64,000 nt of DNA from Escherichia coli (lineage in GTDB: Bacteria; Pseudomonadota; Gammaproteobacteria; Enterobacterales; Enterobacteriaceae), in assembly GCF_024700885.2 (NCBI RefSeq), contig NZ_CP117016.1; one strand, given 5' to 3'. The translations under genes were made by a program, and so were the position numbers. Below the pieces are notes generated by a model. It did no database searches and was not told where the DNA came from. It worked only from the letters and a program-made list of their open reading frames with translations. This document shows positions 14,467 to 55,653 of this stretch, piece after piece (within the stretch, counting starts at the first letter, position 1; every line of letters begins with the position of its first letter).

Positions 14467-14495
14467 TTGACAGACAAGGTACCGCTAAGTAATAT
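14467..14495 (+). promoter_or_regulatory. sigma70 promoter of asnT (TTGACA-17bp-TAATAT, GC-rich discriminator)
   Basis: ttgaca at 14467-14472 and taatat at 14490-14495, followed by gcgcccc; the same architecture precedes all four tRNA-Asn copies. Confidence 0.55.
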
Positions 14496-14513: not shown

Positions 14514-14589
14514 TCCTCTGTAGTTCAGTCGGTAGAACGGCGGACTGTTAATCCGTATGTCACTGGTTCGAGTCCAGTCAGAGGAGCCA
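14514..14589 (+). tRNA. asnT: tRNA-Asn (GUU)
   Basis: 76-nt TCCTCTGTAGTTCAGTCGGTAGAACGGCGGACTGTTAATCCGTATGTCACTGGTTCGAGTCCAGTCAGAGGAGCCA; its 3' end is the HPI attachment site. Confidence 0.95.
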
Positions 14590-14750
14590 ATTTTCTGTTT
14601 TCTTGCATCCTTGCGAATCTTTATCTGATGTTGATTCAACAGGTTAGTGTGAAAACTCTTCTCGGTGCATTTTGATTTTACCCTACGCATCGGGAAAAAT
14701 TGGTGGTCAAATCTGGGGTCGGGTTAGTTCGATAATGGAGTGACCCCCAT

Positions 14751-16013
14751 ATATCCCTTACCGACGCAAAAATCCGCACCCTCAAGCCTTCTGATAAACC
14801 CTTTAAAGTCTCCGATTCTCACAGTCTGTATCTGCGGGTCAAGCCGGGTGGCTCCCGCCACTGGTATCTCAAATACCGTATTAGCGGTAAAGAATCCCGC
14901 ATTGCGCTGGGTGCCTATCCAGCCATCTCCCTGTCTGATGCGCGACAGCAACGTGAAGGTATCCGTAAAATGCTGGCGCTGAATATCAACCCGGTACAGC
15001 AGCGGGCTGCTGTACGTGGCTCACGAACACCGGAGAAAGTTTTTAAAAACGTGGCGCTGGCGTGGCATAAAAGTAACAGGAAATGGTCGCAGAACACCGC
15101 CGACCGTCTGCTTGCCAGCCTGAACAATCACATCTTTCCGGTCATCGGGAACCTACCTGTATCAGAACTTAAACCCCGTCATTTCATTGACCTGCAGAAA
15201 GGGATCGAGGAAAAAGGTCTGCTGGAGGTTGCGTCCCGCACACGGCAGCACCTGAGTAACATAATACGCCATGCGGTCCATCAGGAGTTAATCGATACGA
15301 ACCCTGCAGCAAACCTTGGCGGCGTGACCACACCTCCTGTCAGACGGCACTATCCTGCCCTGCCGCTGGAGCGGCTGCCTGAACTGCTTGAACGTATTGG
15401 GGCATATCATCAGGGCCGTGAACTGACCCGGCATGCCGTTCTGCTGATGCTGCATGTGTTCATTCGCTCCAGTGAACTGCGTTTCGCCCGCTGGTCAGAG
15501 ATTGATTTCACAAACCGAGTCTGGACGATACCCGCGACGCGAGAACCCATTATTGGCGTGCATTATTCCGGCCGCGGGGCAAAAATGCGAATGCCGCATA
15601 TCGTCCCCCTCTCAGAACAGTCCATCGCCATTCTGAAACAGATTAAGGATATCACCGGTAATAATGAACTGATCTTCCCCGGCGACCATAACCCGTATAA
15701 GCCAATGTGTGAAAACACGGTCAATAAGGCACTGCGGGTGATGGGTTACGACACGAAAAAGGATATCTGCGGTCACGGCTTCCGGGCAATGGCATGCAGT
15801 GCGCTGATGGAATCGGGTTTATGGGCAAAGGACGCAGTAGAACGCCAGATGAGTCATCAGGAGCGCAATACCGTGCGCATGGCTTATATTCATAAGGCAG
15901 AGCACCTGGAAGCCCGCAAAGCGATGATGCAGTGGTGGTCGGATTATCTGGAAGCATGCCGAGAATCTTATGCACCGCCTTATACAATTGGTAAAAATAA
16001 GTTTATCCCATAG
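14751..16013 (+). CDS. int: P4-family tyrosine integrase of the High-Pathogenicity Island; no canonical start codon in frame
   Basis: Frame open from stop at 14733 to 16013; in-frame N-terminal region ...SLTDAKIRTLKPSDKPFKVSDSHSLYLRVKPGGSRHWYLKYRISGKESRIALGAYPAIS... is the P4-type arm-binding domain, but there is no ATG/GTG/TTG before the Met at 14970 (codon 14751-14753 is ATA). The 5' coordinate is therefore uncertain. Confidence 0.75.
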   Translation: MSLTDAKIRTLKPSDKPFKVSDSHSLYLRVKPGGSRHWYLKYRISGKESRIALGAYPAISLSDARQQREGIRKMLALNINPVQQRAAVRGSRTPEKVFKNVALAWHKSNRKWSQNTADRLLASLNNHIFPVIGNLPVSELKPRHFIDLQKGIEEKGLLEVASRTRQHLSNIIRHAVHQELIDTNPAANLGGVTTPPVRRHYPALPLERLPELLERIGAYHQGRELTRHAVLLMLHVFIRSSELRFARWSEIDFTNRVWTIPATREPIIGVHYSGRGAKMRMPHIVPLSEQSIAILKQIKDITGNNELIFPGDHNPYKPMCENTVNKALRVMGYDTKKDICGHGFRAMACSALMESGLWAKDAVERQMSHQERNTVRMAYIHKAEHLEARKAMMQWWSDYLEACRESYAPPYTIGKNKFIP

Positions 16014-16206: not shown

Positions 16207-17511
16207 CTACACCATTAAATAGGGCGCAATGCTCGCTAATTTCTCCCGGGTTTCTGTCAGTTCGCGTTCCGGCGTAGATTGCGCGATGATTCCCGCCCCC
16301 GCCTGTATCCAGCAGCGCTGGCTATCCTGAAATACGGAACGCAGAACTAGCGCCGCATCAAAGCGCGTATCGTCCAGCAGCAGGATTGCGCCGGAATAAA
16401 GCTCTCGCGGCGTCTTCTCAATTTGCATAATCGCGTTCAGAGCAGCATTTTTAGGGATACCTGAGGCGGTAATCGACGGAAACAGCACGGTAAACGCATC
16501 CCAGGCATCCTTGTTTTCCGCAAGCTGACCGCTCACGCCAGACCCCAGATGCTGAACGCTGCCGCGCTGGCGAACCGACATTAAATCTTCAACCACCACG
16601 CTGCCCGGCTGGCAAACAGCCTCCAGTTCAGCAATAGCTTCTTTGACAGAAAGGATATGCTCAAGCACCTCTTTACTGTCGTGCAGCAGTTCTGCCTCTT
16701 TCGCCTTATTATGCTCCGGGTTTCCCATGCGATCGCGGGTGCCCGCAAGCGGTTCAGTGACCACTTTATTGCCCGTCACTGACATCACCAGTTCCGGGCT
16801 AAAGCCCAGCGCTTCGCGTCCTTCCTGACGGAACATAAACGAGCGCACAGGCGTGTTTGCCTGCCGCCCGTATAACAGCGTGGCGGGCATATCAATCCGC
16901 GATGGCAGGGGAATGGCGCGCGAGACAATCACTTTGACATACTCGCCACGGCGGATCTCCGCAACGGCGCGCGCAACCTGTTGTTTATATGCCTCACCAT
17001 TGAGGGCGGTATCCACCGCCAGTGGTGCGTTCTGCGTCGTTGTACCGGCCTCTTTTACCCACTCGCACAAACGTCGGCACCCGTCGGCGGAGTCCGCATA
17101 AACGGTGACATTTCCCTTTTCAAAAATAAGTTCTTCACGGGGAACGGTTAACGTCAGCAGCGGCCACTCCCCGGCGTTAAAGGCAATCCCCCGCGCATGC
17201 GCCGCAAAGTTGAACCCAACCTGTCCATATACCCGACGTCCTTTCACCTGAGGATGCGCCATAAAACGACGCGCGCAGTCGGCAATGGAATCCACCGCCC
17301 ATTTTTGCTCCCCAGCATCATCAATAAATGTCGCCTGCGTTCCGTCGGCATTAATGTGCAGCCGTGCCTGGCACCCTTTGCCTAAATACCAACAGGGTTG
17401 ACGCTCATAGACATAACACTCTTCTTCTGCGAACTGGCGTAAAACGCCAGAAATCGTCGGTAGCCATTGTTCCTCTGGTAACGCCAGATGTAGAAATTCA
17501 CTGATTTTCAT
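16207..17511 (-). CDS. ybtS: salicylate synthase YbtS (Irp9)
   Basis: 434-aa chorismate-utilising enzyme ORF; last gene of the ybtPQXS operon, next to int as in the Yersinia HPI. Confidence 0.9.
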   Translation of the reverse strand: MKISEFLHLALPEEQWLPTISGVLRQFAEEECYVYERQPCWYLGKGCQARLHINADGTQATFIDDAGEQKWAVDSIADCARRFMAHPQVKGRRVYGQVGFNFAAHARGIAFNAGEWPLLTLTVPREELIFEKGNVTVYADSADGCRRLCEWVKEAGTTTQNAPLAVDTALNGEAYKQQVARAVAEIRRGEYVKVIVSRAIPLPSRIDMPATLLYGRQANTPVRSFMFRQEGREALGFSPELVMSVTGNKVVTEPLAGTRDRMGNPEHNKAKEAELLHDSKEVLEHILSVKEAIAELEAVCQPGSVVVEDLMSVRQRGSVQHLGSGVSGQLAENKDAWDAFTVLFPSITASGIPKNAALNAIMQIEKTPRELYSGAILLLDDTRFDAALVLRSVFQDSQRCWIQAGAGIIAQSTPERELTETREKLASIAPYLMV

Positions 17512-43014: not shown

Positions 43015-45036
43015 ATGAAAATGACACGGCTTTATCCTCTGGCCTTGGGGGGATTATTGCTCCCCGCCATTGCTAATGCCCAGACTTCACAGCAAGACGA
43101 AAGCACGCTGGTGGTTACCGCCAGTAAACAATCTTCCCGCTCGGCATCAGCCAACAACGTCTCGTCTACTGTTGTCAGCGCGCCGGAATTAAGCGACGCC
43201 GGCGTCACCGCCAGCGACAAACTCCCCAGAGTCTTGCCCGGGCTCAATATTGAAAATAGCGGCAACATGCTTTTTTCGACGATCTCGCTACGCGGCGTCT
43301 CTTCAGCGCAGGACTTCTATAACCCCGCCGTCACCCTGTATGTCGATGGCGTCCCTCAGCTTTCCACCAACACCATCCAGGCGCTTACCGATGTGCAAAG
43401 CGTGGAGTTGCTGCGAGGCCCACAGGGAACGTTATATGGCAAAAGCGCTCAGGGCGGGATCATCAACATCGTCACCCAGCAGCCGGACAGCACGCCGCGC
43501 GGCTATATTGAAGGCGGCGTCAGTAGCCGCGACAGTTATCGAAGTAAGTTCAACCTGAGCGGCCCCATTCAGGATGGCCTGCTGTACGGCAGCGTCACCC
43601 TGTTACGCCAGGTTGATGACGGCGACATGATTAACCCCGCGACGGGAAGCGATGACTTAGGCGGCACCCGCGCCAGCATAGGGAATGTGAAACTGCGTCT
43701 GGCGCCGGACGATCAGCCCTGGGAAATGGGCTTTGCCGCCTCACGCGAATGTACCCGCGCCACCCAGGACGCCTATGTGGGATGGAATGATATTAAGGGC
43801 CGTAAGCTGTCGATCAGCGATGGTTCACCAGACCCGTACATGCGGCGCTGCACTGACAGCCAGACCCTGAGTGGGAAATACACCACCGATGACTGGGTTT
43901 TCAACCTGATCAGCGCCTGGCAGCAGCAGCATTATTCGCGCACCTTCCCTTCCGGTTCGTTAATCGTCAATATGCCTCAGCGCTGGAATCAGGATGTGCA
44001 GGAGCTGCGCGCCGCAACCCTGGGCGATGCGCGTACCGTTGATATGGTGTTTGGGCTGTACCGGCAGAACACCCGCGAGAAGTTAAATTCAGCCTACGAC
44101 ATGCCGACAATGCCTTATTTAAGCAGTACCGGCTATACCACCGCTGAAACGCTGGCCGCATACAGTGACCTGACCTGGCATTTAACCGATCGTTTTGATA
44201 TCGGCGGCGGCGTGCGCTTCTCGCATGATAAATCCAGTACACAATATCACGGCAGCATGCTCGGCAACCCGTTTGGCGACCAGGGTAAGAGCAATGACGA
44301 TCAGGTGCTCGGGCAGCTATCCGCAGGCTATATGCTGACCGATGACTGGAGAGTGTATACCCGTGTAGCCCAGGGATATAAACCTTCCGGGTACAACATC
44401 GTGCCTACTGCGGGTCTTGATGCCAAACCGTTCGTCGCCGAGAAATCCATCAACTATGAACTTGGCACCCGCTACGAAACCGCTGACGTCACGCTGCAAG
44501 CCGCGACGTTTTATACCCACACCAAAGACATGCAGCTTTACTCTGGCCCGGTCGGGATGCAGACATTAAGCAATGCGGGTAAAGCCGACGCCACCGGCGT
44601 TGAGCTTGAAGCGAAGTGGCGGTTTGCGCCAGGCTGGTCATGGGATATCAATGGCAACGTGATCCGTTCCGAATTCACCAATGACAGTGAGTTGTATCAC
44701 GGTAACCGGGTGCCGTTCGTACCACGTTATGGCGCGGGAAGCAGCGTGAACGGCGTGATTGATACGCGCTATGGCGCACTGATGCCCCGACTGGCGGTTA
44801 ATCTGGTCGGGCCGCATTATTTCGATGGCGACAACCAGTTGCGGCAAGGCACCTATGCCACCCTGGACAGCAGCCTGGGCTGGCAGGCGACTGAACGGAT
44901 GAACATTTCCGTCTATGTCGATAACCTGTTCGACCGTCGTTACCGTACCTATGGCTACATGAACGGCAGCAGCGCCGTCGCGCAGGTCAATATGGGTCGC
45001 ACCGTCGGTATCAATACGCGAATTGATTTCTTCTGA
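43015..45036 (+). CDS. fyuA: TonB-dependent yersiniabactin/pesticin outer-membrane receptor FyuA (Psn)
   Basis: 673-aa ORF with N-terminal signal peptide, plug and beta-barrel pattern, C-terminal aromatic residue (...NTRIDFF). Confidence 0.92.
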   Translation: MKMTRLYPLALGGLLLPAIANAQTSQQDESTLVVTASKQSSRSASANNVSSTVVSAPELSDAGVTASDKLPRVLPGLNIENSGNMLFSTISLRGVSSAQDFYNPAVTLYVDGVPQLSTNTIQALTDVQSVELLRGPQGTLYGKSAQGGIINIVTQQPDSTPRGYIEGGVSSRDSYRSKFNLSGPIQDGLLYGSVTLLRQVDDGDMINPATGSDDLGGTRASIGNVKLRLAPDDQPWEMGFAASRECTRATQDAYVGWNDIKGRKLSISDGSPDPYMRRCTDSQTLSGKYTTDDWVFNLISAWQQQHYSRTFPSGSLIVNMPQRWNQDVQELRAATLGDARTVDMVFGLYRQNTREKLNSAYDMPTMPYLSSTGYTTAETLAAYSDLTWHLTDRFDIGGGVRFSHDKSSTQYHGSMLGNPFGDQGKSNDDQVLGQLSAGYMLTDDWRVYTRVAQGYKPSGYNIVPTAGLDAKPFVAEKSINYELGTRYETADVTLQAATFYTHTKDMQLYSGPVGMQTLSNAGKADATGVELEAKWRFAPGWSWDINGNVIRSEFTNDSELYHGNRVPFVPRYGAGSSVNGVIDTRYGALMPRLAVNLVGPHYFDGDNQLRQGTYATLDSSLGWQATERMNISVYVDNLFDRRYRTYGYMNGSSAVAQVNMGRTVGINTRIDFF

Positions 45037-45044
45037 TTATTGTA

Positions 45045-45074
45045 AAAGGGATACCGAAAAGGTATCCCTTTTAC
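45045..45074 (+). terminator. hairpin terminator downstream of fyuA
   Basis: aaaagggatacc-gaaaa-ggtatcccttttac, 9 bp after the fyuA stop; the 3' T-tract is short. Confidence 0.45.
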
Positions 45075-45606
45075 ACCACTAGTTAAAACCAGTAACTCAG
45101 CAGAGTCGCAAAAAATATTAATCCATAGTGATTATTTAAACAATGAAATTGCGATTAGGATAAATAGATTTAACTTTCTCGTTCCTTTCTCTCCTTATAC
45201 TAAAGAAATAATCATATCAAAATAAAAATTCACAACAGTGCAACATTAAAAAATACAACCAACAAACAATCCTATATACAAGGCACATCTCCAGAATATA
45301 AAAGCACAGACAAACAACCTAAAAAAAACAACCCCATACATATAAATTATTTTATAGGTAAAATAGATTATATATTCTCATAGCTACCACAAACTATACT
45401 AGCCTGAACTATATTTATTCTGCTGCAATCAATGCATACATAACACAAATATCACTCAGGTACACTACTCAAACCACGCTGGGATTTTTCCTCAAGTTAT
45501 AATCATCACCCCGAAAATCATTCGGCATTTACTCATTAAATAGTCACCCCAGGTGATGCTGCCAACTTACTGATTTAGTGTATGATGGTGTTTTTGAGGT
45601 GCTCCA

Positions 45607-45882
45607 GTGGCTTCTGTTTCTATCAGCTGTCCCTCCTGTTCAGCTACTGACGGGGTGGTGCGTAACGGCAAAAGCACCGCCGGACATCAGCGCTATCTCT
45701 GCTCTCACTGCCGTAAAACATGGCAACTGCAGTTCACTTACACCGCTTCTCAACCCGGTACGCACCAGAAAATCATTGATATGGCCATGAATGGCGTTGG
45801 ATGCCGGGCAACTGCCCGCATTATGGGCGTTGGCCTCAACACGATTTTACGTCACTTAAAAAACTCAGGCCGCAGTCGGTAA
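45607..45882 (+). CDS. insA: IS1 InsA
   Basis: 91-aa product [24 protein letters not shown]... (GTG start), the zinc-finger InsA. Confidence 0.88.
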
Positions 45883-46304
45883 CCTCGCGCATACAGCCGG
45901 GCAGTGACGTCATCGTCTGCGCGGAAATGGACGAACAGTGGGGCTATGTCGGGGCTAAATCGCGCCAGCGCTGGCTGTTTTACGCGTATGACAGGCTCCG
46001 GAAGACGGTTGTTGCGCACGTATTCGGTGAACGCACTATGGCGACGCTGGGGCGTCTTATGAGCCTGCTGTCACCCTTTGACGTGGTGATATGGATGACG
46101 GATGGCTGGCCGCTGTATGAATCCCGCCTGAAGGGAAAGCTGCACGTAATCAGCAAGCGATATACGCAGCGAATTGAGCGGCATAACCTGAATCTGAGGC
46201 AGCACCTGGCACGGCTGGGACGGAAGTCGCTGTCGTTCTCAAAATCGGTGGAGCTGCATGACAAAGTCATCGGGCATTATCTGAACATAAAACACTATCA
46301 ATAA
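45801..46304 (+). CDS. insB: IS1 InsB reading frame (expressed as InsAB' by -1 frameshift)
   Basis: 167-aa ORF overlapping the insA 3' end in the -1 frame. Confidence 0.8.
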
Positions 46305-46319
46305 GTTGGAGTCATTACC

Positions 46320-51345: not shown

Positions 51346-51421
51346 TGGCTCCTCTGACTGGACTCGAACCAGTGACATACGGATTAACAGTCCGCCGTTC
51401 TACCAACTGAACTACAGAGGA
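51346..51421 (-). tRNA. asnW: tRNA-Asn (GUU), variant copy with one D-loop substitution
   Basis: Reverse complement is identical to the other three Asn tRNAs except AGTTGGTAG instead of AGTCGGTAG in the D-loop. Confidence 0.93.
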
Positions 51422-53169: not shown

Positions 53170-53245
53170 TCCTCTGTAGTTCAGTCGGTAGAACGGCGGA
53201 CTGTTAATCCGTATGTCACTGGTTCGAGTCCAGTCAGAGGAGCCA
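53170..53245 (+). tRNA. asnU: tRNA-Asn (GUU)
   Basis: 76-nt sequence identical to asnT. Confidence 0.95.
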
Positions 53246-55577: not shown

Positions 55578-55653
55578 TCCTCTGTAGTTCAGTCGGTAGA
55601 ACGGCGGACTGTTAATCCGTATGTCACTGGTTCGAGTCCAGTCAGAGGAGCCA
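55578..55653 (+). tRNA. asnV: tRNA-Asn (GUU)
   Basis: 76-nt sequence identical to asnT. Confidence 0.95.

Follow-up and report, generated by a model that had tools for sequence, protein, structure and literature searches.

The 64,000-nt stretch of Escherichia coli DNA analysed here (the window) carries a high-pathogenicity island (HPI) whose integrase gene, int, encodes a conserved N terminus with no ATG, GTG or TTG in frame, and whose expected start position is occupied by ATA. A preliminary description of the locus had proposed that translation begins at a rare codon, or else that a start-codon mutation leaves an N-truncated or untranslated integrase and so helps to fix the island in the chromosome. 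This raises the question of where the ATA came from, whether protein is still made from it, and whether it bears at all on the mobility of the island.

Context and reading frame of int

The window runs from tRNA-Ser through mtfA, tRNA-Asn and int to ybtS on the opposite strand (Table 1). Strains in which the 1424-nt int region is identical are annotated with mtfA, tRNA-Asn, a tyrosine-type recombinase, ybtS-X-Q-P-A, irp2, irp1, ybtU-T-E and fyuA, and the ORF layout of the window holds the same complete ybtS-to-fyuA set. The island is the HPI at its usual E. coli position, asnT, with int directly 3′ of the attachment-site tRNA gene and adjoining the ybt cluster (tRNA-Asn 14514-14589, int from 14751, ybtS from 16207). 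No terminator-like site was found between asnT and int. After integration the asn tRNA promoter takes over from the integrase's own promoter (Auvray 2021, PMC8209727), and the asnT promoter of the window probably also drives read-through into int.

Table 1 Features of the int region and the island borders (window coordinates)
Feature	Position	Strand	Basis
Sigma-70-like asnT promoter, TTGACA-17-TAATAT	14467..14495	+	10/12 consensus matches
tRNA-Asn (asnT), island attachment site	14514..14589	+	ARAGORN; mtfA upstream as in RefSeq
attL core (asnT 3′ 16-mer)	14574-14589	+	16-mer search
In-frame TAA closing the int frame upstream	14733..14735	+	Codon reading
GGAG Shine-Dalgarno, 10 nt before the start position	14737..14740	+	Conserved in all alleles and species examined
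ATA at the homologous initiation codon, from ATG by G-to-A at 14753	14751..14753	+	Alignments; start of RefSeq CDS WP_024193699.1
int (intB) of the HPI, 420 codons and TAG stop, otherwise intact	14751..16013	+	Translation, Pfam
Arm-type DNA-binding domain coding region (residues 3-87)	14757..15011	+	Pfam
Met74, first canonical in-frame start; weak AAGG 14 to 11 nt upstream	14970..14972	+	
Catalytic tyrosine-recombinase domain coding region (residues 224-384)	15420..15902	+	Pfam
ybtS, first yersiniabactin gene, marking the island as HPI	16207..17511	-	RefSeq annotation of identical DNA
fyuA, last island gene	43015..45036	+	ORF layout, RefSeq annotation of a strain with identical int region
Right junction of the island, without attR repeat	45037..45551	.	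99-100% identical in ATA-type and ATG-type islands

Codon reading confirms that the int frame is open after the stop at 14733 and reaches its first canonical start at 14970, as first described. The codons are TAA (14733-35) TGG AGT GAC CCC CAT ATA (14751-53) TCC CTT ACC GAC, and the translation after the stop begins W S D P H I S L T D A K I R T L K P; up to codon 74 (ATG, 14970-72) the frame contains no ATG, GTG or TTG. The ORF listing, which admits these three starts, gives for int only a 347-aa ORF (14970-16013). A run of 72 codons free of internal ATG, GTG or TTG is mildly unusual (P ~0.05 from the triplet frequencies of the window). ATG alleles of the gene carry the same codons across this stretch, which leaves the A at 14753 as the single informative base. 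RefSeq places the start of the CDS on the ATA itself, yielding a 420-aa protein (WP_024193699.1 for the window allele), and likewise starts 420-aa proteins on ATA in the MS1494, ST1193 and GmF052 alleles.

The P4-type N terminus said to be encoded upstream of Met74 is borne out by a match of residues 3-87 to Arm-DNA-bind_3 (PF13356, E=6.9e-23); it is followed by Phage_int_M (PF22022, residues 98-191) and Phage_integrase (PF00589, residues 224-384). The protein contains the motifs IRSSEL (R239), HGFR (H342, R345) and MAYIH (Y379), whose marked residues we take to be the R..HxxR..Y catalytic set of tyrosine recombinases. What departs from a canonical P4-type integrase gene is the start, ATA at 14751-53. 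The product is identical at 414 of 420 residues to a multispecies Enterobacterales protein (P0121), and its six replacements include Gly25Ser in the arm-binding domain, at a position that is glycine in all 13 other sequences examined. Compared with IntB of the Yersinia HPI, ICEEc1 and ICEKp1, the window int is the same gene with the same domains, the same Shine-Dalgarno sequence and the same position 161 nt downstream of the tRNA-Asn gene; it differs in having ATA for ATG, in the six replacements and in lacking an attR partner, and hence a substrate for excision.

Translation could instead begin at Met74, which would give a 347-aa integrase without the arm-binding domain, perhaps a core-binding, defective or dominant-negative recombinase. 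Met74 is the sole canonical in-frame start, its ORF appears in the ORF listing, and its product would keep the Phage_int_M and catalytic domains. However, it is preceded only by the weak AAGG, it is absent from the RefSeq annotation, and the same internal ATG in the same context is found in all ATG alleles, so that it does not set the ATA form apart. We consider initiation at Met74, from which most of the arm domain would be lost, very unlikely; the arm-less integrase of the preliminary description is conceivable at best.

Frequency and ancestry of the ATA codon

Alleles were counted in 5426 complete E. coli genomes with 40-nt megablast queries designed to make every 28-nt seed span the start codon. 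Queries of 91 nt proved unsuitable, because the ATG alleles carry linked differences and so seemed to have no exact match. The ATA 40-mer was found in 953 of the 5426 genomes (861 exact, 83 with one mismatch and 9 of a distinct type). The query for the ATG-TCC class matched 880 genomes: 537 carry the AZ162 type exactly, another 85 carry close variants of it, and the sequences of the other 258 are more divergent; these last lie at the identity level of a pks-island paralogue sampled at asnW, and the ATG-TCC count is accordingly taken as 622 (537 + 85). A third class, ATG-TTC (protein MFLTD...), is present in 612 genomes and includes O104:H4, EC11 and a Shiga-toxin strain. ATA thus accounts for ~44% of HPI-type int genes in complete E. 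coli genomes. Matches at asnW beside yeeO (Nissle, ECSC054) belong to the pks-island integrase, not to HPI int, and were set aside. A protein search with int returned only near-identical E. coli variants.

On the doubt raised about the A at 14753, the 861 exact matches in independent complete genomes establish that the base is real and rule out a sequencing or assembly error; moreover, at least 30 independent assemblies share the whole 1424-nt int region at 100% identity. A related idea is that the ATA is genuine and that ribosomes starting at GTG 14740 slip by -1 on the C5 run and so regain the int frame. There is indeed a C5 run just upstream, and the out-of-frame GTG opens an 80-aa ORF. Nevertheless, this GTG overlaps the Shine-Dalgarno sequence and has none of its own, and the same GTG and C-run occur in ATG alleles. 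Taken together, error and slippage have a negligible probability. The ATA start is an old, widespread E. coli allele.

To the question of whether ATG is the ancestral state at 14751, which the preliminary description had left to be checked, the answer is yes: the homologues recovered outside E. coli all carry ATG, and the sequence around it is otherwise the same. When one genome per bacterial species was scanned for the context GGAGTGACCCCCAT-NNN-TCCCTTA, all six species that matched had ATG (Izhakiella, Klebsiella spallanzanii, K. pneumoniae, Pantoea, Affinibrenneria and Raoultella); neither Yersinia nor E. coli was among the matches, presumably because the single genome standing for each of these species does not carry the island. 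P0121, which carries the source label 'MULTISPECIES ... [Enterobacterales]' and occurs on >1000 contigs, is matched exactly by the protein from Raoultella, and ten of ten further genomic contexts of P0121 also have ATG. The same is true of the pks-island int paralogue, and the two other E. coli allele classes (ATG-TCC and ATG-TTC) have ATG behind the same GGAG. The ATG of other species, of the P0121 contexts and of the pks paralogue argues that ATG is ancestral and ATA derived within E. coli; this polarity is read from sequences of other genera and from the multispecies label of P0121, with ATG presumed for Yersinia as well. Of the two possibilities raised initially, a rare start codon or a start-codon mutation, the mutation from ATG to ATA is the one that holds, and ATA, if used, would be a rare near-cognate start.

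Attachment sites and the fixed island

The asn 16-mer that forms the attL core occurs in the window only in four asn tRNA genes, at 14574, 51346, 53230 and 55638. Between fyuA and shiA no copy of it was found, allowing up to 4 mismatches, in the window, in one more ATA strain or in the ATG strains AZ162 and EC11. The 515 nt after fyuA are common to all four strains compared, at 99-100% identity. Schubert et al. 2009 (PMC2606025) describe a unique right-border deletion in every HPI-positive ECOR strain except ECOR31; by the same account such a deletion makes site-specific mobilisation impossible and fixes the island (see also PMC8209727).

The proposal that the start-codon mutation helps to fix the island does not survive this comparison, because ATG islands at asnT (AZ162, EC11) share the same attR-less right junction. 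As the loss of attR is common to ATG and ATA islands, it is either older than the start-codon change or unconnected with it, and without attR no Int protein could excise the island. The absence of attR is enough to explain why the island is immobile, and the ATA start is without consequence for mobility.

The window island shares with the fixed E. coli HPI of Schubert et al. 2009 (PMC2606025) the asnT insertion, the full ybt set and the loss of the right direct repeat; its sequence after fyuA is that of other E. coli, and there is no essential difference between the two. Keywords for the integrase start codon retrieved no discussion of it from the searchable text of that paper, and a full-text literature search found no paper discussing an ATA start codon in int. 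One peculiarity of the window strain lies just beyond the junction. A complete 768-bp IS1, beginning GGTGATGCTGCCAACTTACTGAT, occupies 45552-46319, 515 nt after fyuA, and contains an ORF (45801-46304, 167 aa) that matches the NCBIfam IS1 transposase at 1.8e-42. It stands in place of ~3.8 kb that in other strains hold yeeJ-like inverse-autotransporter remnants and a family 9 glycosyltransferase. This position suggests an IS1-mediated deletion beside the island, by which the yeeJ-remnant region adjacent to the otherwise typical fixed HPI was also removed.

The other three tRNA-Asn genes of the window, asnW (51346-51421, - strand), asnU (53170-53245, +) and asnV (55578-55653, +), are unoccupied. 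No pks island or second integrase lies beside them, unlike in Nissle-type B2 strains.

Selection on int and the fate of its start codon

Polymorphism was compared in eight E. coli islands, four with ATA and four with ATG. In int we counted 19 nonsynonymous and 5 synonymous polymorphic sites (omega ~1.2, a value that rests on 24 sites in 8 strains and on very recent polymorphism, which inflates dN/dS), against 33 nonsynonymous and 41 synonymous sites in ybtS/X/Q/P/A of the same strains (omega 0.16-0.38; Fisher p=0.004 for the difference in N:S). The nonsynonymous changes in int occur in ATG lineages as well as in ATA lineages. When int is set against the more distant gene of K. pneumoniae ATCC 13883, pN/pS is 0.14-0.23, indicating that the gene was constrained before it became stranded in E. 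coli. In E. coli, int evolves without constraint whichever start codon it has.

We consider it likely that int is a vestigial gene in decay, and that the ATA start is a neutral part of this decay, a leaky knock-down that has hitchhiked with the island. A G-to-A transition would have turned the int ATG into ATA while keeping the Shine-Dalgarno sequence and the 420-codon frame, and the new allele would have arisen, or spread, in an integrase that, with no attR substrate, already had no job. Hecht et al. (bioRxiv 10.1101/063800) measured initiation from AUA at 1-2% of AUG in one system and at 0.02-3% in others, and the signal exceeded background every time. Ribosomes may still bind the GGAG of int, with the initiator tRNA pairing with AUA at a low rate, of the order of 1-2% of AUG. 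The allele would then be a knock-down of ~50- to 100-fold or stronger that leaves a trace of full-length Int rather than a clean null, and it could have reached ~44% by hitchhiking with successful island and host lineages. Both the level of residual translation and the neutrality of the G-to-A change are inferred.

A complete null, with no initiation at ATA and no protein of any kind, differs from such a knock-down in degree only. Near-cognate starts fall as low as 0.02% of AUG in single-copy constructs (bioRxiv 10.1101/063800), and the relaxed constraint on int is consistent with complete loss. Against this, int keeps an intact Shine-Dalgarno sequence at a distance that allows initiation, and none of the constructs of Hecht et al. 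(bioRxiv 10.1101/063800) showed AUA down at background. A full absence of product therefore seems highly improbable.

Near-cognate starts are conserved in some genes. The genes infC and pcnB have conserved near-cognate AUU starts. Similarly, lacI starts with GUG (PMC11445065). By analogy, the ATA of int could be a selected attenuator that keeps functional Int very low, possibly in an IF3-sensitive manner, like the AUU of infC and pcnB. As in these genes, a non-AUG codon behind a normal Shine-Dalgarno sequence lowers initiation in int, and initiation from AUA is measurable (Hecht et al., bioRxiv 10.1101/063800). The Shine-Dalgarno sequence, the frame and the catalytic motifs are all kept, and ATA is frequent (953 genomes) and found on at least three int backgrounds. 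The benefit might lie in keeping Int from driving rearrangements between the attL of asnT and the other asn tRNA genes, all three of which lie within 41 kb, the window containing four identical att cores at the positions given above. However, in infC, pcnB and lacI the orthologues share the odd codon and purifying selection acts on the protein, whereas the orthologues of int have ATG and int evolves neutrally. No orthologue recovered outside E. coli has ATA (ATG in 6 species and 10 contexts), the codon is polymorphic within E. coli, where ATG alleles are equally common, and the omega of int is significantly above that of its neighbours, with the window allele itself altered at the invariant Gly25. 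Selected attenuation is thus an unlikely explanation.

Some observations sit less easily with neutral decay. The ORF is intact in all ATA copies examined, with no frameshift in the five ATA alleles sampled, as would fit a protein that is still used. ATA also occurs on at least three int backgrounds, with an ATG allele (AZ162 type) nested among them, which could reflect recurrent mutation, or reversion under selection, in place of drift combined with recombination. We regard it as quite unlikely that the G-to-A change was favoured by selection, possibly recurring or reverting, and that Int dosage still matters in the immobilised island. If it were so, one reason could be recombination by residual Int between attL and the other asn tRNA genes, all three within 41 kb.

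The backgrounds in question are the window type, the MS1494/ST1193 type and GmF052, and the variable sites of int group in conflict with one another, a sign of intragenic recombination or recurrence. In GmF052 (L009 ~1400-1440; 9 complete genomes) ATA stands on an ACC-AGC (Ser5) background otherwise typical of the AZ162 ATG allele and comes with a TAA-to-TGA change in the upstream stop, which points either to a second origin of ATA or to recombination over a very short tract.

In a further variant of the ATA allele, the A at 14743 is replaced by CC (GTGCCCCCCCATATA). It is found in assembly LM996875.1 (L019 2983-3020; also L020 and L021) and in several independent sequencing runs, in the region equivalent to window 14734-14753. 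The replacement removes the TGA of the mini-frame ATG-GAG-TGA and brings ATG 14734 and GTG 14740 into frame with int, giving proteins that begin MECPPHISL... and MPPHISL..., for which gene callers report 424-426 aa (P0031, P0035). The variant had no match in complete genomes, which may be a true absence or the result of masking of its C7 run. The change is possibly a compensatory start, and as such it would also count against neutral decay of the ATA-type int.

The preference for neutral decay as a leaky knock-down bears on annotation more than on biology. The fixed island has been known since 2009 and the ATA start already stands in hundreds of RefSeq records; this is ordinary gene decay, of the kind to be expected when an integrase that is no longer needed loses its start codon, and it carries little weight for the biology of the island. 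Of the refuting observation named at the outset, functional homologues annotated with the same ATA, hundreds of RefSeq genomes supply the annotation alone. In ~44% of HPI-positive E. coli, gene callers limited to ATG, GTG and TTG will find a 347-aa integrase without the arm domain where RefSeq reports 420 aa, and automated calls of an 'intact integrase' or a 'mobile island' from either annotation are unreliable. The start-region classes ATA-TCC, ATG-TCC and ATG-TTC are handy markers for island lineages and for recombination.

Degenerative lesions of int in a persisting island are known from the deletion of intB bp 124-470 (Paauw et al. 2010, PMC2801613); that deletion certainly inactivates the gene, whereas the ATA of the window is a single-base change in an intact ORF and may be leaky. 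A lesion resembling the published one is present in the STEC strain 00_3230 (L017 1442-2357), whose int has an ATG-TTC start and an internal deletion and is annotated as frameshifted. Frameshifts are also annotated in ybtX of EC11 (L040 5233-6512) and in irp2 of an ST1193 isolate (L037 9311 onwards), so that, unless these are assembly errors, some islands also carry lesions in their yersiniabactin genes.
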